DNA of 64,000 nucleotides from Candidatus Wolfebacteria bacterium (GTDB taxonomy: Bacteria; Patescibacteriota; Minisyncoccia; UBA6257; UBA9933). Made by a program: the position numbers and the translations under genes. The stretch is from contig JANLIR010000005.1 of assembly GCA_024654025.1 (NCBI GenBank), positions 1,174-65,173 on the forward strand, in the 5' to 3' direction. Positions 3,791-22,238 of the stretch are shown here, one piece after another; within the stretch, counting starts at the first letter, position 1, and the number at the start of each line of letters is the position of its first letter. Under the pieces are notes generated by a model. The model was not told the origin of the DNA. It did no database searches and worked only from the letters and a program-made list of their open reading frames with translations.

Positions 3791-5125
3791 TTAAGAATGA
3801 ATAGACGTTATTTCTTTAAAGCTGGCTTTTTCCGGATCGAATTTAAGCGGAACCGTTCCTAGAGGCCCGTTTCTGTGTTTGGATATTATGATTTCGGCGG
3901 TATTTATTTCTTCAGGCGAAGGATTTAATTTATCGCGATCTTTCCGGTAAATAAACATAACCACATCCGCATCCTGCTCCCAAGAACCCGTTTCACGAAG
4001 ATCCGATAAGCGGGGGATTTTAATTTCCCTTTGGTCCACAGCCCTGTTTAATTGCGATACCGCTAAAACCGGAACGTTTAATTCTTTGGCAAGGGCTTTT
4101 AGTCCATGGCTTATTTCGGTAAATTGTTGGACGATGTTTTCAGAATTGGAACTAGACGTTATTAATTGAACATAATCAATAACAATAAGTCCTAAGCCGT
4201 GTTCCATTTGCATTCTCCGGCCCATTGACCTTAGCTGTAAAAGCGTTGGCGATGGCGTATCGTCTATGATAATCGGCATTGTTGAAAGCCGGTCAAGCGC
4301 TTCGCGGATCATTTCGAATTCAATTTCATCGGTTAACCGCCCGGTTCTTAACCGCCATAAATCAACCTGCGCTTCTGCCGCGATAAGCCTATCAATAATT
4401 TGGTCTTTGGACATTTCTAAAGAAAAAATTGCCACAGGCACGCCGGCTTTTGAAGCGTTTCGGACAAAATCAAGAACAAGCGAGGTTTTTCCCAAGGATG
4501 GCCTTGCTCCTAAAATAATCAAATCGGATTTTTGAAATCCCGAAAGATATTTATCAAGTTCGACAAATCCGCTTGTCACTCCGCGCAACCCCCTTTCTCC
4601 CCGGTTCATTTTTTCGATTCGCTCGTACGCCTCGCTCAAATGTTCTTTGACAAGAGAATAAGTTGGTAAAAGTGATTTTTGGCTGATTGAAAATATTTTT
4701 TGCTCTATTTTGTCCAAAACATTTTCGACATCTTCCTGATTATTGAAGGCTTGTTCGGTAATTTCTCCCGAAACTTGTATTAAGTCGCGCAGTATTTTTT
4801 TCTGATGAACAATTTTTCCATAATGGAAAACATGGGCGCTTGAAGGCACCATATTTATCAAATCGGTAAGATAAGTTGATCCGCCGGCATCAGTAAGCAA
4901 GTTTTTATCTTTCAGTTTATTGGTGACTGTTAAAATATCAATCGGTTCCGATTTTTTGAAAAGCTCTATTATAGCGGCGTAAATCTTTGCGTTAGCCGGC
5001 TGATAAAAATCTTCGGCGGCGATTGAATCCGCCACTTTGATAATGGCGTTTCCGTCTATCATCAGCGCGCCTAATAATGATTTTTCTGCCTCCAAATCTT
5101 GTGGAGGAATTTTTATTATGCTCAT
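3791..5125 (-). CDS. dnaB: replicative DNA helicase DnaB
   Basis: Walker A motif GARPSLGKTSLVLDF and DnaB-like N-terminal and C-terminal domain organisation. Confidence 0.9.
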   Translation of the reverse strand: MSIIKIPPQDLEAEKSLLGALMIDGNAIIKVADSIAAEDFYQPANAKIYAAIIELFKKSEPIDILTVTNKLKDKNLLTDAGGSTYLTDLINMVPSSAHVFHYGKIVHQKKILRDLIQVSGEITEQAFNNQEDVENVLDKIEQKIFSISQKSLLPTYSLVKEHLSEAYERIEKMNRGERGLRGVTSGFVELDKYLSGFQKSDLIILGARPSLGKTSLVLDFVRNASKAGVPVAIFSLEMSKDQIIDRLIAAEAQVDLWRLRTGRLTDEIEFEMIREALDRLSTMPIIIDDTPSPTLLQLRSMGRRMQMEHGLGLIVIDYVQLITSSSNSENIVQQFTEISHGLKALAKELNVPVLAVSQLNRAVDQREIKIPRLSDLRETGSWEQDADVVMFIYRKDRDKLNPSPEEINTAEIIISKHRNGPLGTVPLKFDPEKASFKEITSIHS

Positions 5126-5141
5126 TTTGTAAATTTTAACT

Positions 5142-6518
5142 TCAACGCTTGGTTACGAACGGTCCCAGCGGCGTATCCTTTATTAAGTATCCTAAACGTT
5201 CTATTTTAATTCTCAAGCGGTCGGCGGGGACAAACTGTTTATTTTGCCTCGATAACTGCCTTTCCTGGGCTAATTTCGCTATTTTTAGGGGTATTTCTGT
5301 AGAAGCGTAGTTTATTTCAAATAGTTTTAAAAGCTTGTTTATAGACGTTTTTATCGCTATCGCTTCTTTTTTTGAAAGCTTCCATAATTTGGGGTTTATT
5401 TGGTTTATGAGATTAAAAATTTCTGATAGCGCCTTAGGAGTGTTGAAATCGTCGTCCAGCGCTTTTTTAAAATCATTTTCGAATTTTTCTAATATTTTTT
5501 TTATGTTTGTTCCGCCCTTTTTATTTACGGCGTTTAACTCCACAAATTTTAAAGTTGTTATAAAATCTTCAATATTTTTTAGAGATTTTTTTGCCGACGC
5601 TAAAACTTCATCGTTGTAATTAATAGGGGAACGGTAATGATGGGAAAGCGCAATCATTCTTAAATCGCTGCTGGAATTTTTTTTCAGGAATTCGCGGATA
5701 GTTATAAAATTATTCAAGCTTTTGGACATCTTGTCGCCGTTGATAAGCAAAAAGCCGGTATGCATCCAAATTTTCACGAACGGTTTTTTCCCTGAAGCCG
5801 ATTCTTGTTGGGCTATTTCCGATTCATGATGGGGGAATTTTAAATCGTTTGCTCCGCCATGAATATCGTATTGGGGACCGAAAAATTTTTCGGTTATTGC
5901 CGTATCTTCTATGTGCCAGCCTGGCCTGCCCCAACCCCAAGGCGAATCCCAGCCAATGTTTTCTTTGGTTTCTTTCCAAAGCGCAAAATCAAGCGGATCT
6001 TTTTTTTGCGGGTCTTGTTCAATTCTGTATCCATGCCTTAGTTCGCTTAAATTTTGTTTTGAGAGATTGCCGTAATTAGTGAATTTTTTAACCTGGAAAT
6101 AAACTCCGTTTTTTGTTTCGTAAGCGAAGTTTTTTTTCAAAAGAACGGCGATTTGTTTTTGAATTTCTTTGATATATTTGCTGGCAGGAGCGTATTTATC
6201 AACCGAATTTATATTCAGCGCTTTTATGTCTGTGTAATATTCCTTTTCAAATTGTTTCGCCAGTTTTTCGGGTCTGATATTTTTGTCTTTTGCCCTGTTT
6301 ATGATTTTATCGTCAATATCGGTTATATTTTGCAAATAAAAAACCTTATTTTTTAAAAAACGAAGGTATTTAACAAAACTATCAAATATTATGTAGGTCC
6401 GGGCGTGTCCTATGTGCGAATAATCGTAAACCGTTGGCCCGCAAACAAAAAGCTTAAGGCCGTTTTTTGGTTTTTTTACCGCTATTTTTTTGCCGCTAAG
6501 AGTGTCTAAAATGCGCAT
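5142..6518 (-). CDS. cysS: cysteine--tRNA ligase
   Basis: CGPTVYDYSHIGHAR (HIGH motif) and KMSKSLNNF (KMSKS motif), with the class I aaRS layout. Confidence 0.9.
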   Translation of the reverse strand: MRILDTLSGKKIAVKKPKNGLKLFVCGPTVYDYSHIGHARTYIIFDSFVKYLRFLKNKVFYLQNITDIDDKIINRAKDKNIRPEKLAKQFEKEYYTDIKALNINSVDKYAPASKYIKEIQKQIAVLLKKNFAYETKNGVYFQVKKFTNYGNLSKQNLSELRHGYRIEQDPQKKDPLDFALWKETKENIGWDSPWGWGRPGWHIEDTAITEKFFGPQYDIHGGANDLKFPHHESEIAQQESASGKKPFVKIWMHTGFLLINGDKMSKSLNNFITIREFLKKNSSSDLRMIALSHHYRSPINYNDEVLASAKKSLKNIEDFITTLKFVELNAVNKKGGTNIKKILEKFENDFKKALDDDFNTPKALSEIFNLINQINPKLWKLSKKEAIAIKTSINKLLKLFEINYASTEIPLKIAKLAQERQLSRQNKQFVPADRLRIKIERLGYLIKDTPLGPFVTKR

Positions 6519-6611
6519 GAATAATTATTGAAGGATTATTTAGAGTTTATTTTAAAATTAGCCCTTTCGCAAGCTGGCGCTTTCGCGATTAAATGGTAAA
6601 ATATTTATATT

Positions 6612-7736
6612 ATGGATCAAGATTTGTATCCAATTTTTGTGATTGTGATGGCTTTGCTGTTAGCCGTAGTGTTTGCCGGGCATTATCTTATTTACTATTC
6701 AACAGTTAAATTTTTTTCAGTTGCAACCGCGCAAACAAAAGCGATTTTGGGGCTAGTCCTTTTAGGACTGGCGCTTAGTTTTTTTGTAACGTCAATCCTG
6801 GCCCGTCTAAGCGAAAATTTTGTAACCAGAACGCTTTATTTTTTATCAACTTTATGGCTTGGCGTGGCAACAACACTACTCGCTGTTTTTATCGCCAGTT
6901 GGGTTGTAATTTGGATTTCCAAATACTTTAGCTGGCAGATTAATTTAATTGCTTTAGGCGTTGTGGCTTTAATATTTTCATTCGCGTATTCGGCGTATGG
7001 AATTTGGAACGCGTATAATCCGGTCATAAAAGAAATTACCGTAAACATAAAAAATCTTCCGCCCCAATGGAAAGACAAAAAAGCCGCCCAACTTTCCGAT
7101 GTTCATTTAGGCCACGTTCTAAGAGCCGGGTTTATGCAAAAAGTAGTTGACGAAACTAATGCTCAAAAACCGGACATCATTTTTATTACCGGTGATTTGT
7201 TTGACGGAATGGACGGCGATTTAGCGCAACTCGCAAAGCCTTTAAGTAATATTAAAGCGCCGCTCGGAACTTATTACGTAACCGGGAATCACGAAACTTA
7301 TTTAGGAGTTGAAAATGCTTACTCTGCTTTAAAAACTACTCCTGTCAAAACTTTAAAAGACCAGCTAGTTAATATTGACGGCATGCAAATAATCGGAATT
7401 TCTTATCCTGAACGGGGATTTTCAAAAGACATAGGCCAGGTTATTAAAAATTTAGCATATTTTAATCCGCAAAATCCGTCTATTCTTTTGTGGCACGACC
7501 CCACAAAGATTGACCAGGTAAAACAAGCCGGCGTTAGTCTGCAATTATCCGGGCATACTCATCACGGCCAAATTTTCCCAATTAATCTTGTTTCGCGTTT
7601 AGTATACGGAAAATATTATACCGGCCTTCATCAAGAAGAGAACTACTCGATTTATACTTCAAACGGCGTCGGCGTTTGGGGTCCCACTATGCGCACCGGC
7701 AGTCGTCCGGAAATTGTTATTATAAAATTTAAATAA
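6612..7736 (+). CDS. membrane-anchored calcineurin-like metallophosphoesterase
   Basis: N-terminal transmembrane helices followed by LSDVHLGH...ITGDLFDG...GNHE metallophosphatase motifs. Confidence 0.7.
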   Translation: MDQDLYPIFVIVMALLLAVVFAGHYLIYYSTVKFFSVATAQTKAILGLVLLGLALSFFVTSILARLSENFVTRTLYFLSTLWLGVATTLLAVFIASWVVIWISKYFSWQINLIALGVVALIFSFAYSAYGIWNAYNPVIKEITVNIKNLPPQWKDKKAAQLSDVHLGHVLRAGFMQKVVDETNAQKPDIIFITGDLFDGMDGDLAQLAKPLSNIKAPLGTYYVTGNHETYLGVENAYSALKTTPVKTLKDQLVNIDGMQIIGISYPERGFSKDIGQVIKNLAYFNPQNPSILLWHDPTKIDQVKQAGVSLQLSGHTHHGQIFPINLVSRLVYGKYYTGLHQEENYSIYTSNGVGVWGPTMRTGSRPEIVIIKFK

Positions 7737-8168: not shown

Positions 8169-9767
8169 TTATTTTATAATCGTTGTATAAGACCCTTCTG
8201 GTATCTGATTAATTTGAGAAGGTAATTTGTAATAAATATTTTTTTTAACTTGTTTTTCCGGAGTGAAAGTGTCGGTTATAAACATAACAGTTTGGCTGGG
8301 CATGGGAATACCTCTGACTTCAGCGCCGGATGCTTGAATTATAACGAATTTCGGCCTCTCCGGCGGTAAATTATTTAATTCCCGCCCAATCGCGACATAA
8401 TCAGCCGCGAAAGCGCCCTGAACATTGTGATTTTTGCCCCAGACAATGAAATAATCATAATAAGCGTTAAAAGGAAGAAATATTAAGAATACTACGCTGG
8501 CGGTAAATAAAAATTTTCTAAAAATTCCGTGCTCAAATTCGCCGAAATAATTTTTTAAAAATTCATAAAGCCACACCCCACCGAATCCGGCTAAAATAAA
8601 AACCGGCGGAATCATTATAATTGATCGAAGCGCGTGAGGAATGCCTTCGTTTGAAATTACTACCGGAAGAGAAACAATAGCCAGCGCTGAAAATAAAATC
8701 CAAGAAGAGAATCTGATTGTTTTATCGCGGTCATTTAGCGGCTTTTTAAAAATACCGATAAGACTGAATAAAACGCCAATTAAAAATATTGTTCCCACTG
8801 GCCAAAATAATTGGGGGCTGCCGGAAATATTATGCCGCCAGTTATAATCGCCGACAACGCCAAACATTCCTAAAGTTTTTAGCGTATTAAGCGCCAAGTT
8901 TTTTAACGGCGCTTCAGAGCTAAAAACAGAAACTTGTGAAGTTCTGCCCATAAAATCCGCCGGGTTTTTCAAAAAATGATATCCCAAAGGCGCGAAAGCC
9001 AAAAGAGAAAAAATTGCAAAAACAATAAAAATTTTTACAGTGGCCTTTCTTGATTCTTTATGGGCAAAAAACCACATTCCGAAAACAATTAGAATCAAAA
9101 GCGGCGTGGCTCGATAAGCGATATAGCTGTGCATTCCTAATCCGTAAACAAGGCCTGAAATAATTCCGTACAAAAGCCATTTTTGATTCCGCAGTCCTTT
9201 TAAAAGAAAATACAAAGCCCAGGTTAGGAAAAACGGCGCCATTATCGCTCTAAATCCGATACGCGAAAAATTTATATGCCAAAAACTCGTGGCAATCAGA
9301 AAGGCGCTGAGTAATGCGATTTTTTGGTTCAGCGGAATTATTTTATTTTCTGTTTGTCGTTCGTCGTGCGTAGTTCGTAGTTTTACAAAGAGCTCTTTTG
9401 CCAAAAAATAAACGCCCAAAACCGTAAGTATGCCGAATATAACGCTTACTATTCGAAGCGCCCAAGGTTCATTGCCAAAAGTTTCAATTGAAAGACCCTG
9501 TATGTTTATAAATAATCCCTCGCGTCCATTATTTTCCGGGTAAAAAACTTTCCAATTACCGGTTGAAATTGCTTCCAGCGCGTTGTTGCCGTTCATTGCT
9601 TCGTCCGGATAAAGTCCCGGCGGCAAACTTTTTATGTTGTAAGCCCTGAGAAAACCGGCTATAATTAGTATAACTAGCAATAAAATAAAAGAAAAAGATT
9701 TTTTTCTTCCTTTATTATCCATATAATTTTGATGTAATTTTATATTATGAACGACCAAATTAATCAT
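8169..9767 (-). CDS. PMT_2/ArnT-like (GT39/GT83) membrane glycosyltransferase
   Basis: Polytopic membrane protein with an LYPDEAMNG DE motif in the first loop, which is the family signature. Confidence 0.6.
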   Translation of the reverse strand: MINLVVHNIKLHQNYMDNKGRKKSFSFILLLVILIIAGFLRAYNIKSLPPGLYPDEAMNGNNALEAISTGNWKVFYPENNGREGLFINIQGLSIETFGNEPWALRIVSVIFGILTVLGVYFLAKELFVKLRTTHDERQTENKIIPLNQKIALLSAFLIATSFWHINFSRIGFRAIMAPFFLTWALYFLLKGLRNQKWLLYGIISGLVYGLGMHSYIAYRATPLLILIVFGMWFFAHKESRKATVKIFIVFAIFSLLAFAPLGYHFLKNPADFMGRTSQVSVFSSEAPLKNLALNTLKTLGMFGVVGDYNWRHNISGSPQLFWPVGTIFLIGVLFSLIGIFKKPLNDRDKTIRFSSWILFSALAIVSLPVVISNEGIPHALRSIIMIPPVFILAGFGGVWLYEFLKNYFGEFEHGIFRKFLFTASVVFLIFLPFNAYYDYFIVWGKNHNVQGAFAADYVAIGRELNNLPPERPKFVIIQASGAEVRGIPMPSQTVMFITDTFTPEKQVKKNIYYKLPSQINQIPEGSYTTIIK

Positions 9768-15741: not shown

Positions 15742-16709
15742 AGTCCTACAGTCGTATATTTTTTTTAACTTTAATTTTTATCGTTTCCGTTTTGACGGTT
15801 AAAATTTGGGGCGATAAAATTTCCAGCCCTAAAGTTTCAGCTCTAGCAACGGTTAAAAATGTTCTGGAGGGTGCCGGCGGAGACATAAACCAAGAAAGCC
15901 CCGTTATTGATAAAACATTCGTATCAGAAATAGCCTCAACGGGAAATTTTTCAGAAAACCCCACCTCTACCTTGAAATTCGCTTCCGAAGGAGTCTGTTC
16001 GGAAGTTGAATTTTCCAGCCGAGCGATTTTAGTTGAATATTTAAATCAAAATATTAGCGTGGCGGAAATAAATTCCACTCGGCGCTGGCCAATCGCTTCA
16101 ATAACAAAATTAATAACTGCCGTTGTCGCCGTCGAAAACATCGACCCGGAACTTTCCATCACTCTCACGGATAAAGCGTTAAAAGCCGAGGGAGATGTCG
16201 GTAATTTCAAATCAGTCCAGACATTTAAAGCAAATGATTTAATAAAAGCGATGCTTTTACTTTCCAGCAACGACGCGGCAATGGCTTTGTCGGAAACATT
16301 CGGTTCAGAAAAATTTTTGGCGTTGATGCGCGGTAAATTAAAAGAAATCGGAATGGAAGAAACGAGCCTTTATGAGTCTACCGGTCTTTCGTCAAAAAAC
16401 CAGTCCACTCCGCGTGACATCGCAAAATTGATGAGGTATCTTTACAATTATCATCCCGAAATTTTAAAATTGACTCGGTCGCCGAGAGAAATGGCTTACG
16501 AAATAAAAACTAAAACGAGGGAAGTTTTTATGAATATAAATAAATTTGCCGGCCAATCGGGCTTTATCGGCGGTAAAACCGGCTTCATAAATGATTCCGG
16601 AGGAAATTTAGTTTCACTGTTTAATGTCCGGGGCCAGCCGGTTGTTATAATAGTTTTCGGCTCAAACGACAGGTTTAAAGAAAGCGAACAAATTTTAGAA
16701 TGTATTTAA
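15738..16709 (+). CDS. D-alanyl-D-alanine carboxypeptidase (serine-type, PBP5/6-like)
   Basis: SxxK motif (ASITKLIT), SxN motif (LSSND) and KTG motif (GKTGF). Confidence 0.8.
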   Translation: MKSYSRIFFLTLIFIVSVLTVKIWGDKISSPKVSALATVKNVLEGAGGDINQESPVIDKTFVSEIASTGNFSENPTSTLKFASEGVCSEVEFSSRAILVEYLNQNISVAEINSTRRWPIASITKLITAVVAVENIDPELSITLTDKALKAEGDVGNFKSVQTFKANDLIKAMLLLSSNDAAMALSETFGSEKFLALMRGKLKEIGMEETSLYESTGLSSKNQSTPRDIAKLMRYLYNYHPEILKLTRSPREMAYEIKTKTREVFMNINKFAGQSGFIGGKTGFINDSGGNLVSLFNVRGQPVVIIVFGSNDRFKESEQILECI

Positions 16710-17779
16710 CTCACGTATTTTTAATAATTAAAATTATAAGTTTTTTAGCGGCGTCTTTTGTGGTCGCGCTCTTGATTGAACCGGCGCTAAGTTATTTTTT
16801 ATATAAATACCAAGCCTGGAAAAAGAAACCGAAAGATGTGAGCGCCGACGGACGCGACACCCCAATTTTTAAAAAATTCCACAGCGTTAAAGAAACGAGC
16901 GTTCCCAGAATGGGAGGAATATTAATTTGGGGAACGGTTTTAATAGTCACGGCGCTGAGTTTTCTGATGTCTAAATTTTTCCCTGCTCAAATAGGAGCTC
17001 GGATTAATTTTCTTAACCGTTCGCAAACTTGGCTGCCGCTTTTTTCTTTAATCGCCGCTTCTCTTTTAGGCTTAGTTGACGATATAAAAACAATCAAGGG
17101 AAACGGGAAATATATAACCGGCGGAATGCGATTTAAAACCCGTTTGGCTTTAATATCCGCTATAGCCCTTGCCGGCGCTTGGTGGTTCTATTTTAAACTC
17201 GGCTGGAGCAGTATTTATATTCCATTTTATGGAAACGTCGCGATAGACGGTTTATATATAATACTTTTTGTTTTGGCTATTTTAGCAACATTTTCAACCG
17301 GCGTAGTAGACGGCTTGGACGGGCTTTCGGCCGGGGTATTAGCTCCAATTTTTGGAGCTTACGGGGTTATAGCTTATTCAAGAGGTTTGTATGATTTAAC
17401 CACCTTTATAGTTATTATTATTGGCGCTTTAATAACATACCTATGGTTTAACGTGCCGCCGGCGAAATTCTATATGGGAGAAACCGGGATCATGGGGCTT
17501 ACGGTTGTTCTTGCTGTAATCGCGTTTTTAACGAATTCCATTTTATTTTTGCCCATAATCGGATTGGTGTTAGTAATTGAGGCTCTTTCGGTTATAATTC
17601 AGCTCACTTCTAAAAAATTTAGAAACGGGAAAAAAGTTTTTTTGGCAGCTCCGATACACCATCATTTTGAGGCTAAGGGCTGGTCTGAAGCCCAAATCAC
17701 AATGCGGTTTTGGATTATTTCAGGAGTATTTTCCAGCCTGGGGCTAGTTCTTTACTTTTTAAGCAAGTTTTTGTATTAA
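16700..17779 (+). CDS. mraY: phospho-N-acetylmuramoyl-pentapeptide-transferase
   Basis: Conserved motifs VDDIKTIKG and VDGLDGLSAG; ten-helix membrane topology. Confidence 0.9.
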   Translation: MYLTHVFLIIKIISFLAASFVVALLIEPALSYFLYKYQAWKKKPKDVSADGRDTPIFKKFHSVKETSVPRMGGILIWGTVLIVTALSFLMSKFFPAQIGARINFLNRSQTWLPLFSLIAASLLGLVDDIKTIKGNGKYITGGMRFKTRLALISAIALAGAWWFYFKLGWSSIYIPFYGNVAIDGLYIILFVLAILATFSTGVVDGLDGLSAGVLAPIFGAYGVIAYSRGLYDLTTFIVIIIGALITYLWFNVPPAKFYMGETGIMGLTVVLAVIAFLTNSILFLPIIGLVLVIEALSVIIQLTSKKFRNGKKVFLAAPIHHHFEAKGWSEAQITMRFWIISGVFSSLGLVLYFLSKFLY

Positions 17780-17787
17780 ATTTTTAA

Positions 17788-18003
17788 GCGGGTGTAGTAT
17801 AGTGGCAATATACGACCTTCCCAAGCCCCGCACCAAAGAAAGATATTGAGCATAATCTTGCGGGTATAGTATAGTGGTAGTACGCGACCTTCCCAAGGTT
17901 GAAGCGTGGGTCCGATCCCCATTACCCGCTCATAAAAAGCAAGCAATCTTTCTTTTGGTGACGGGGCAAGGTTGAGACGAGGGTTCGATTCCCTTCACCC
18001 GCT
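17788..18003 (+). tRNA. split/interrupted tRNA-Gly(CCC): 5' half 17788-17824, 3' half 17970-18003, separated by a ~145-bp insert
   Basis: The 5' half carries the acceptor strand GCGGGTG, a D-arm, the anticodon stem CGACC and the loop TTCCCAA. The 3' half carries GGTTG, a variable loop AGAC, a T-arm GAGGG-TTCGATT-CCCTT, the acceptor strand CACCCGC and a discriminator U. Joined, they give a canonical 71-nt tRNA. Confidence 0.5.
17860..17930 (+). tRNA. tRNA-Gly(CCC), intact and nested inside the split tRNA-Gly
   Basis: 71 nt with acceptor GCGGGTA/TACCCGC, loop TTCCCAA (anticodon CCC, U33 present) and discriminator U. Confidence 0.75.
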
Positions 18004-18038: not shown

Positions 18039-18557
18039 ATGTTAACGCTGGAGCAAGAAAAGTGGATTGCCCATTTGTCTGATGAGAACAAAATAATAAT
18101 CGTTCCATTCGACCCGACTGCAGAAGAAAAGTTCCAAAAAGTTAAACAAAGAATCAACGACTCGATAGGAAGAGAAGTGCCAGTAGAACATCGAGGAGCG
18201 ACGAGTTTAGGAATATCCGGACAAGATGAAATTGACGTCTACATTCCAATTCCATCGGCGAGATTTAATTCATTAGTCGATCCATTAAAAAATATTTTTG
18301 GCGAACCAAAAAGTTTGTACCCGCTTGAAAGAGCGAGGTTCGTAACAGAAGAAAATGGAAAACATATCGATGTATTTTTAATAAACGAAGAGCATGACGG
18401 GTGGAAAAATGCAGTTAAGTTTGAAGAATATTTACGATCTCACCCAGAAGCCTTAGAAAAATATCGACAATTAAAAGAAGACGGTAATGGATTAAGTGTT
18501 CGAGAATATTATCGAAGAAAAACAGAATTTATAAATGAAATTTTATCTGAAGTCTAA
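18039..18557 (+). CDS. GrpB-family nucleotidyltransferase-fold protein
   Basis: The segment HRGATSLGISGQDEIDVYIP matches the GrpB signature. Confidence 0.55.
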   Translation: MLTLEQEKWIAHLSDENKIIIVPFDPTAEEKFQKVKQRINDSIGREVPVEHRGATSLGISGQDEIDVYIPIPSARFNSLVDPLKNIFGEPKSLYPLERARFVTEENGKHIDVFLINEEHDGWKNAVKFEEYLRSHPEALEKYRQLKEDGNGLSVREYYRRKTEFINEILSEV

Positions 18558-21681: not shown

Positions 21682-21812
21682 CAACCCCGCACCTTTAATG
21701 AATGGCGAAGCTTTGAAATTCTATAGATTTAAATTTTTATTATTAAATAACTATGTTTTATGCTTAGTTCGGCGGCTTCGGAAAGAATTTAAATTCATTA
21801 AAGGTGCGGGGT
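21682..21812. repeat. 24-bp perfect inverted repeat flanking an ~85-bp AT-rich spacer
   Basis: gtcaaccccgcacctttaatgaat ... attcattaaaggtgcggggttgac. It lies between the rnpB 5' end and the stop of the 146-aa gene. Confidence 0.5.
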
Positions 21813-22238
21813 CAACTTATTTTTTTTGACCATAATACTGTGGATTTCTTGAGTCAATTCATTATTGATTTTTATTAATCTATGAATTTCGTCCTGAATC
21901 TTTAAAAGCGCTTCAGCGTCTTGATATGTTTGAAGCGCCTGCTTATCAGCGGCTTGCGCGGCTACTTTTTGGCCAACCATAATAACTGAAAGAAGAACTA
22001 GTTGTAAAAATGTTTGAGCAATCCATGATATAAGAGTTGGCGTTCCTCCTAAAATAGCAGCCGGAAGGCTTATAAGCGCTATGATAGCAAAAAGGTATGC
22101 GCACCACATTGTACCAACTGCGCCGGTTATTAACACTGCTAAACGGCCATTAAATCCAGCATGCTCATGCTTTGTCAAATGAGGACCGGATTTTGTCCGT
22201 TCTTCAATTCGAGGATTTGGAATGTGTATTATTTTCAT
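21798..22238 (-). CDS. DUF1003-like small membrane protein
   Basis: Two transmembrane helices after a TKSGPHLT...GFNGRLAV N-terminal segment. Confidence 0.4.
   Translation of the reverse strand: MKIIHIPNPRIEERTKSGPHLTKHEHAGFNGRLAVLITGAVGTMWCAYLFAIIALISLPAAILGGTPTLISWIAQTFLQLVLLSVIMVGQKVAAQAADKQALQTYQDAEALLKIQDEIHRLIKINNELTQEIHSIMVKKNKLTPHL

Follow-up and report, generated by a model that had tools for sequence, protein, structure and literature searches.

The window, by which we mean the whole 64,000-nucleotide stretch of Candidatus Wolfebacteria DNA analysed here, contains at 17788–18003 a tRNA-Gly(CCC) gene that is split in its anticodon loop by an insert carrying a second, intact tRNA-Gly(CCC) gene. 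All parts of this locus are on the plus strand. The 5′ part of the disrupted outer gene (17788–17825) is the same as the first 38 nt of an uninterrupted gene in the related locus L081, with 17788–17821 corresponding to its first 34 nt, and is closed by the tetranucleotide CAAG (17822–17825). Next come the left inverted-repeat arm CCCCGCACCAAAGAAAGAT (17826–17844), placed by alignment of the arms; a 15-nt leader, ATTGAGCATAATCTT (17845–17859), which is partly conserved in the alignment of related cassettes; the cargo tRNA gene (17860–17930); a 15-nt trailer, CATAAAAAGCAAGCA (17931–17945), with the motif GCAAG[CA]A that is recurrent in related cassettes; and the right inverted-repeat arm ATCTTTCTTTTGGTGACGGGG (17946–17966), which has an extra base about 6 bp from its terminus. 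A second CAAG (17967–17970) opens the 3′ part of the outer gene, the remainder of which, with its discriminator T, extends over 17971–18003 and equals the 3′ part of the L081 gene. The interruption between the two outer halves is 145 bp long, and the element proper (17826–17966) is 141 bp.

The first-pass annotation had described the split gene, the nested gene with a different T-loop, the complementary GC-rich ends of the insert and the CAAG repeat at each boundary, and all four are borne out. Joining 17788–17824 to 17970–18003 gives 71 nt, GCGGGTG...CCTTCCCAAGGTTG...CACCCGC with the canonical T-loop TTCGATT, which ARAGORN calls as tRNA-Gly(CCC). The nested gene is found by ARAGORN and scores 60.7 bits against the Rfam tRNA model. 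Its T-loop (17911–17917) reads TCCGATC, a non-canonical sequence with C at position 55, where U is near-universal elsewhere; this C may be normal for the clade. A stand-alone tRNA-Gly(CCC) gene of a related genome (L088:4131–4204) has the T-loop TCCGATT. The two arms are terminal inverted repeats that pair at 20 positions with a 2-nt gap in a local alignment, and G17825 can additionally pair with C17967. With the anticodon loop being TTCCCAA, the CAAG covers the anticodon base C36 together with A37, A38 and G39. The cargo has the same anticodon (CCC) as the gene that is split in its anticodon loop, as expected of a compensating tRNA. The intron mode of ARAGORN (introns up to 400 nt, lowered thresholds), which had been proposed as a check, reported the nested gene, but never the outer one; it also produced one spurious tRNA-Ile.

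The locus is polymorphic for the insertion. In L081, whose MraY is 97% identical to that of the window, an uninterrupted tRNA-Gly(CCC) gene lies downstream of mraY (L081:5326–5396; Rfam, 64.2 bits). Its sequence agrees at every base with the joined halves of the window, which excludes chance, and it has a single CAAG. In contrast to this empty site, the outer gene of the more distant relatives L082–L085 (MraY 78% identical) is interrupted at the very point seen in the window, but by a different cassette, in which the insert, the cargo tRNA-Gly(CCC) and the arms (GCCCCGTAGTGAAAATTCGAC and GTCGAATTTCTACTACAGGGC, again complementary) all differ from those of the window. A comparison of related genomes for presence or absence of the insert had been suggested beforehand, and it shows both empty and filled sites. 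In the outer gene of L082 the anticodon stem has a C–A mismatch. Only the right arm and the 3′ half survive in L086, and only the left arm and a mutated 5′ half (anticodon loop TTCCTAA) in L087. The unbiased sample of such loci consists of the four that are linked to MraY, namely the window, L082, L086 and L087. L130, an independent metagenome contig obtained from Hainich groundwater, agrees with the window at 100% identity over the outer halves and the cassette, which rules out an assembly artefact.

Further nested loci were obtained from a metagenome scan for the 3′ junction, which returned 50 loci; 14 of them are genuine nested tRNA-Gly loci, the remainder being chance matches in GC-rich genes. 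Beyond L082 and the window, they comprise ten distinct arrangements (L093, L096, L100, L104, L106, L109, L110, L129, L132 and L139). None of the nested loci from the scan adjoins mraY except L128, which belongs to the L082 lineage, so that the genomic contexts are different. The insertion recurs at C36–G39: nearly all two-sided junctions read CCCAAG|CCCC[GC]...[GC]GGGG|CAAG, where the vertical strokes mark the boundaries of the insert, and the exceptions are CCCAAA in L093 and CCCAAAAG...CAGGG in L082. The arms are 14–22 nt long in the 11 loci with arms on both sides, the leaders 0–15 nt, and the inserts 106–152 bp, apart from 245 bp in L104. Seven cassettes, including that of the window, align from end to end, and arms homologous to those of the window are present in L129, L096, L110, L139 and L087. 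The cassettes of the window and L129 are 90.8% identical, whereas the outer halves are only 74% and 87% identical, and the anticodon stems of the two outer genes, each of which is internally consistent, are CGACC/GGTTG and GTAGC/GCTAC, respectively. Such similar cassettes in such different outer genes mean that one cassette lineage has entered different tRNA-Gly alleles, i.e. that it moves horizontally.

These comparisons bear directly on one further explanation for the locus, a scrambled tandem duplication of tRNA-Gly or a chimera of assembly with no mobility involved. It is true that tRNA genes are recombination hot spots and that the region downstream of MraY is variable among the relatives. 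However, the independent assembly L130 is identical, the empty site in L081 is exact, and the same precise architecture of arms and duplicated CAAG is repeated in more than ten contexts. This explanation is effectively refuted.

More than one level of nesting is present in L110, L109 and L104, the depth reaching two or three levels at some loci. In L104, the two inner levels are on the strand opposite to the outermost gene. In all 14 loci, the innermost tRNA is the sole one found by ARAGORN. Complementary arms occurred only around nested tRNA-Gly genes; the stand-alone tRNA-Gly genes and the tRNA genes for Lys, Glu, Thr and Asp at the loci examined are without them, and the one other arm score above threshold, beside a tRNA-Ala in L156, is borderline. 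L104:296–430 comprises a tRNA-Gly(TCC) gene and, behind it, a trailer, the remnant of an arm (...TATAGGGC), the trinucleotide AAG and the 3′ half of a tRNA. This UCC isoacceptor shares the CAAG at positions 36–39 and appears to have been invaded in L104 in the same way. Scans of viral contigs gave about 90 matches to the 5′-junction pattern and one to the arm pattern of the GIY-YIG elements described below, all of them chance matches with no tRNA nearby, and hence no sign of carriage of the cassette by phages.

After insertion, the outer genes decay. Mismatches or secondary insertions are seen in the outer genes of L082, L093, L096, L100, L104 and L139. When the inserts are excised in silico, four of the ten two-sided outer genes fail to re-form a tRNA owing to further insertions, three of which are palindromes at position 31/32 and one of which lies in the T-loop. 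The GC-rich palindrome CCTGCCTGCCGGCAGGCAGG is located between the anticodon stem and loop (31/32) in L096 (~5858–5877), in L139 (minus strand) and, in a longer form, in L093 (~2630–2668). Found in three outer tRNA-Gly halves that differ from one another, the palindrome looks like a further small insertion with site specificity. GC-rich insertions are also found in the T-loop of outer tRNA-Gly 3′ halves, directly after GGTTC/GTTCGAC, in L132 (minus strand, after GAGGGTTC) and at L104:840–880. The T-loop may be a second insertion hot spot. In L003 (~4856–4880), an isolated tRNA-Gly fragment running from the T-loop to the 3′ end lies about 100 nt downstream of an intact tRNA-Gly.

The arms of the cassettes are akin to those of mini-elements outside tRNA genes. 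The window itself contains a second member of the family at 21685–21811 (plus strand), a 127-bp element with neither a tRNA nor an open reading frame (ORF). It has perfect 19-nt arms, CCCCGCACCTTTAATGAAT and ATTCATTAAAGGTGCGGGG, and is flanked by direct repeats (TCAA|...|TCAA). The arms start with CCCCGCACC, as those of the tRNA cassette do, and this 9-mer occurs three times in the window against an expectation of 0.16. The right arm of the element overlaps the 3′ end of a minus-strand ORF (21798–22238). Still smaller, cargo-less hairpin elements of 59–68 bp with arms CCCCGTTAGAG... are found at L036:1476–1539, 7104–7162 and 8331–8389, L037:2407–2465 and L014:1621–1688, the copies in L036 and L037 being 59–64 bp; they are mostly flanked by 4-bp direct repeats (TGAG, TTTA, TAAA).

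A third kind of relative carries a protein gene. On each side, a stretch of 16 consecutive nt is shared between the arms of the L082 cassette and those around ORFs for GIY-YIG proteins in L140 (96 aa), L141 and L151, and the GIY-YIG ORFs of L163 and L172, close homologues of that of L140, are flanked by L082-like arms with one or two changes, giving five independent sites with arm-bounded GIY-YIG ORFs. In four of these five cases, TATG stands on both sides of the element (TATG|...|TATG), and its position coincides exactly with the start codon of the gene that follows. The elements of about 320 bp (L141:1504–1819, L151:1504–1825, L163 ~671–1005 and L172 ~677–990) have the arms CCAGG[TA]AGTGAAAATTCGA. 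and.TCGAATTT..ACT[TA]CCTGG. The next gene is secA in L141 and an epimerase gene in L163. The encoded proteins are domain-only, UPF0213-type proteins of 79–101 aa (Pfam PF01541; closest solved structure, 1ZG2) that are 70–84% identical across many Patescibacteria and match TIGR01453, a model of group I intron endonucleases, weakly. The idea that the GIY-YIG element is present in multiple copies within one genome was rejected, since many of the contigs represent the same locus sampled repeatedly. The flanking tetranucleotide is constant within each subfamily, CAAG for the tRNA cassettes and TATG for most GIY-YIG elements, which points to genuine target specificity, subject to the ascertainment of the scan discussed below.

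The empty site, the recurrence at the same site, the 4-bp duplication, the shared inverted repeats and the decay of the outer genes together indicate an insertion at the DNA level rather than an intron. Three features expected of a miniature inverted-repeat transposable element (MITE) are found: inverted-repeat ends, a CAAG that is doubled in the window and single in L081, and multiple copies with filled and empty alleles. The GIY-YIG elements of about 320 bp, with arms matching those of the L082 subfamily, may represent a fourth, an autonomous relative that encodes the mobilising enzyme. We regard 17826–17966 as probably a non-autonomous MITE-like element that destroyed the resident tRNA-Gly(CCC) gene and supplied its replacement. 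A mobile insertion bringing its own replacement tRNA was one of two explanations offered by the first-pass annotation, and it is the one favoured by these comparisons. The other was a tRNA intron or a split tRNA of the archaeal type.

According to this second explanation, the arms zip the outer halves together in the transcript, RNase P and RNase Z free the nested tRNA, cleavage at the foot of the helix and ligation then join the outer halves, and both tRNAs are made. The minimum free energy (MFE) fold of the 216 nt (−84.4 kcal/mol) agrees with part of it: the acceptor, D and T arms of the outer tRNA are kept, and a long helix of 20 bp is stacked on the anticodon stem and continues it. Folding had been proposed as a check, and it yielded no bulge-helix-bulge. 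This motif consists of two 3-nt bulges separated by 4 bp. Neither in the MFE fold nor in manual pairing is it present; the 5′ strand has one bulge, of 5 nt, and the 3′ strand is continuously stacked. On inspection of the sequence, TTCC can also pair with GGGG, in competition with the arm helix. At the Rfam gathering threshold, a scan of the window for group I introns, group II introns or other RNA families finds only the two tRNAs, and the non-tRNA portion of the insert, about 70 nt, is too little for a ribozyme core. It also counts in favour of an RNA-level process that pairing is kept through double changes in 10 of the 17 arm pairs (12 elements), that six of the ten outer genes are intact after in silico excision, and that Patescibacteria tolerate group I introns in tRNA anticodon loops, including position 35/36 (PMC13011429). 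The interrupted gene, however, is not under evident purifying selection: the outer genes of L086 and L087 are one-sided relics, and those of L082, L093, L096, L100, L104 and L139 are damaged or re-interrupted. In L104 the cargo is on the opposite strand. Furthermore, these arms also enclose cargo-less hairpins and, at the start codons of mRNAs, a protein gene, with 4-bp duplications in the DNA, and a cargo of the same isotype would be superfluous were the insert spliced out. We consider an intron or split tRNA very unlikely.

A nuclease gene is found in the window at the tRNA-Gln locus (26208–25690, minus strand), where an intact inner tRNA gene, a broken outer one and mobile-element debris are combined. 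It begins with a sequence like a tRNA-Gln 5′ half (~26208–26173; partial Rfam match, 22.7 bits). Two copies of the GC-rich hairpin GCGCCAAAGGCGC lie within 26173–26098, one following the 5′ half-like sequence and the other sitting behind AGGTTC, as though inserted in a T-loop. A 20-nt tRNA-Gln fragment is duplicated (26144–26125 and 25791–25772). The GIY-YIG ORF (26066–25872) is directly upstream of the nested tRNA-Gln gene, and its last codons overlap the complementary leader of the latter. Relative to its homologues it has been shortened by a 1-nt deletion (GGGAAAG versus GGGAAAAG); intact versions of 79 aa are present at L161:120–359 and L162:561–800. L161, like L130, is from Hainich groundwater, and one sample yielded both L162 and the empty-site contig L081. 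The intact tRNA-Gln(CTG) gene (25825–25755) has a complementary leader and trailer that extend its acceptor stem into a 21-nt inverted repeat. Permissive RNA-family matches in this region (microRNA precursors etc.) reflect only the GC-rich hairpins. The earlier suggestion that this locus follows the same logic as the tRNA-Gly locus is broadly right, but the locus is messier: with its several partial 3′ tRNA fragments, the extra GC-rich hairpins and the GIY-YIG gene, it does not fully resolve into clean layers.

A second DNA-level explanation, and the main rival as to mechanism, is that of a homing cassette. The DNA of the anticodon loop would be cut by an endonuclease with site specificity, such as a GIY-YIG enzyme whose gene lies elsewhere or used to lie within the cassette, and the filled allele would be copied into the break; the tRNA halves would serve as homology arms, and the CAAG repeat would go back to one founding event instead of arising anew with every insertion. 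The insert is at the same position in most loci, a GIY-YIG gene does lie inside the analogous tRNA-Gln locus of the window and its relatives, the GIY-YIG fold is a classic homing-endonuclease fold (with the weak match to TIGR01453 in addition), repeated nesting is expected if the cargo tRNA retains the cleavage site, and the outer 5′ half of L110 looks chimeric. Against this, the outer genes of the window and L129 differ up to the 8-nt junction TTCCCAAG, leaving almost no homology for recombinational copying, and the filled allele retains the target site and so has no immunity, unlike in classical homing. The relatives at non-tRNA sites have 4-bp repeats of their own (TCAA, TATG, TGAG, TAAA) in the manner of transposons, the L104 cassette is inverted relative to its target, and the GIY-YIG proteins, being domain-only and 79–101 aa long, are without the DNA-binding domains of known homing enzymes. 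Within the window, moreover, the GIY-YIG ORF is confined to the tRNA-Gln locus and is frameshifted. Homing is an unlikely explanation of the cassette, though not a negligible one.

Several other classes of element were considered and set aside. An integrase island was rejected, because the element is 141 bp with no ORF and only 4 bp are repeated, compared with tens of bp for attL/attR. The interpretation of the arms as integron attC-like or integrase att sites was dropped as well, there being no recombinase, attB and the arms being dissimilar, and the arms varying between cassettes. In single-strand transposition of the IS200/IS605 type, each end has a subterminal hairpin of its own, whereas the two ends of the present element are complementary to one another. 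An enzymology like that of IS200/IS605 is nevertheless possible, as insertion 3′ of a fixed tetranucleotide would fit the constant CAAG.

Returning to the MITE-like element, the course of events was probably as follows. The 141-bp element entered the resident tRNA-Gly(CCC) gene at its anticodon loop and duplicated CAAG; the resident gene was thereby split and presumably inactivated, and the cargo tRNA-Gly(CCC), presumably the functional gene, would take over decoding. For this reason the insertion would be tolerated and could not be lost thereafter. The nested tRNA is presumably released from a longer read-through transcript by RNase P and RNase Z, and the outer halves would be relics that decay over time. 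Since the cargo tRNA bears the same target site, re-invasion is possible, which would lead to Russian-doll nests in which successive insertions hit whichever copy currently functions. Mobilisation would take place in trans. A GIY-YIG nuclease, as the only gene found between homologous arms, is the most economical candidate for the mobilising enzyme; alternatively, the mobiliser may be a transposase of the DDE or HUH type whose gene lies in another part of the genome.

Several points weigh against this reading or fail to set it apart from the others. No ORF is present within 17826–17966, hence neither a transposase, a nuclease nor an integrase gene is inside the 141-bp element, and the window's only GIY-YIG gene is the frameshifted one. 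The link to the GIY-YIG elements consists of arm homology for one cassette subfamily (L082) together with shared termini, and a GIY-YIG domain of ~80–100 aa is not known to mobilise DNA between inverted repeats. Covariation of the arms is equally compatible with an RNA or DNA hairpin and with terminal repeats that evolve together, and so favours neither. The scan pattern demanded a CAAG junction beside a tRNA-Gly 3′ half, and the apparent site specificity is in part an effect of this ascertainment; likewise, the search for cassettes was a search of tRNA genes. That the outer genes would be inactive has to be set beside the six of ten two-sided outer genes that re-form a perfect or near-perfect tRNA on excision. 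Intact outer genes are expected of recent insertions, yet they are also intron-like.

As for the surroundings of the tRNA-Gly locus, mraY (16700–17779) lies upstream, and no exact match to the MraY of the window is on record; homologues of this MraY point to a member of the Patescibacteria near Wolfebacteria. The only sigma-70-like match in a search of the cassette leader for a promoter would place the −10 box inside the nested tRNA and is not credible. In the window, the tRNA locus is separated from pgk by an ORF of 172 aa (18039–18557), which is absent from L081, where pgk directly follows the tRNA; the spacer between mraY and the tRNA also differs between the window and L081, the whole interval being variable. 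In L086, gyrB (4507–7080), which lies downstream of the tRNA-Gly locus, contains an intein with an HNH domain according to precomputed Pfam labels.

MITEs and other short, non-autonomous inverted-repeat elements are known from bacteria, examples being the Correia elements and the Rickettsia palindromic elements. The elements described here resemble them in their size (59–320 bp), in their inverted repeats of ~14–22 bp, in the 4-bp direct repeat (CAAG or, around related elements, TCAA, TATG, TGAG, TTTA and TAAA), in having no internal transposase, in their presence/absence polymorphism, in their many diverged copies and in the occasional insertion into an RNA gene. Different from known MITEs, the cassette carries a tRNA as cargo, presumed functional, sits in the anticodon loop of the cognate gene and is repeatedly nested; in addition, the sole ORF between homologous arms encodes a small GIY-YIG nuclease, not a DDE transposase.

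The functionally closest case that has been described is the tRNA-dependent lysogeny of actinobacteriophages (Guerrero-Bustamante and Hatfull 2024, PMC10865867), where the loss of a host tRNA gene broken by the phage integrase is made good by a tRNA of that isotype encoded by the phage. There, too, the host tRNA gene is entered without being rebuilt. Those elements, however, are whole temperate phages with a tyrosine integrase and an attP/attB core of ~10 bp, whereas the present element is 141 bp long, without an integrase, and has inverted repeats and a 4-bp duplication. The Dada DNA transposons of animals (fish) insert sequence-specifically into genes for small RNAs, tRNAs among them, and do so most often near the anticodon (Kojima 2022, PMC8869645); they are eukaryotic, encode their own transposase and depend on a multicopy target, in contrast to the cassette, which brings a replacement gene. 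Disrupted tRNA genes of archaea have been linked to mobile elements and show population heterogeneity (Sugahara et al. 2012, PMC3293823). The archaeal intron-containing and split tRNAs share with the present locus an interruption in or near the anticodon loop and GC-rich complementary flanks, but they have a bulge-helix-bulge and a splicing endonuclease and the gene stays functional, whereas here the outer genes decay and a complete tRNA lies inside. The group I introns in tRNA anticodon loops of Patescibacteria, including the unusual position 35/36, are self-splicing ribozymes (Nakagawa et al. 2026, PMC13011429). Phylum and kind of target are the same, but the insert here has no group I match and is too small to hold a catalytic core. 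In the main text of that paper, none of the terms Gly, Gln, nested and GIY-YIG appears. In keeping with the first-pass opinion that this form had not been described in bacteria, literature searches yielded no description of a bacterial tRNA gene nested in one of its own kind, nor of GIY-YIG elements bounded by inverted repeats. The insertion of tRNA cassettes thus seems not to have been described previously.

We also put forward, tentatively and as a possibility still open to considerable doubt, a broader proposal: that Patescibacteria harbour unrecognised transposable elements with inverted repeats of ~20 bp, a 4-bp duplication and a gene for a domain-only GIY-YIG protein of 80–100 aa (UPF0213-type) as their sole gene, whose non-autonomous, tRNA-capturing derivatives specifically enter the anticodon loop of the cognate tRNA gene, replace that gene and so constitute a self-perpetuating replacement drive, with Russian-doll nests as its fossils. 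If it is true that a UPF0213-type GIY-YIG protein mobilises such elements, this would give a role to a widespread family without a known function and a new enzymatic basis to DNA transposition in prokaryotes.

For the annotation of these genomes, the nests have a practical consequence. Standard tools report the innermost gene only, and annotation pipelines overlook the rest, which would explain tRNA genes of the candidate phyla radiation (CPR) that have been missed or are oddly flanked. The layers of a nest form a readable record of successive invasions, and the nests would provide a bacterial counterpart to the models in which the disrupted tRNA genes of archaea are created by mobile elements. 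The cassette would also represent a minimal selfish strategy, in which an element of ~140 bp can no longer be dispensed with once its own copy has taken the place of an essential single-copy gene.

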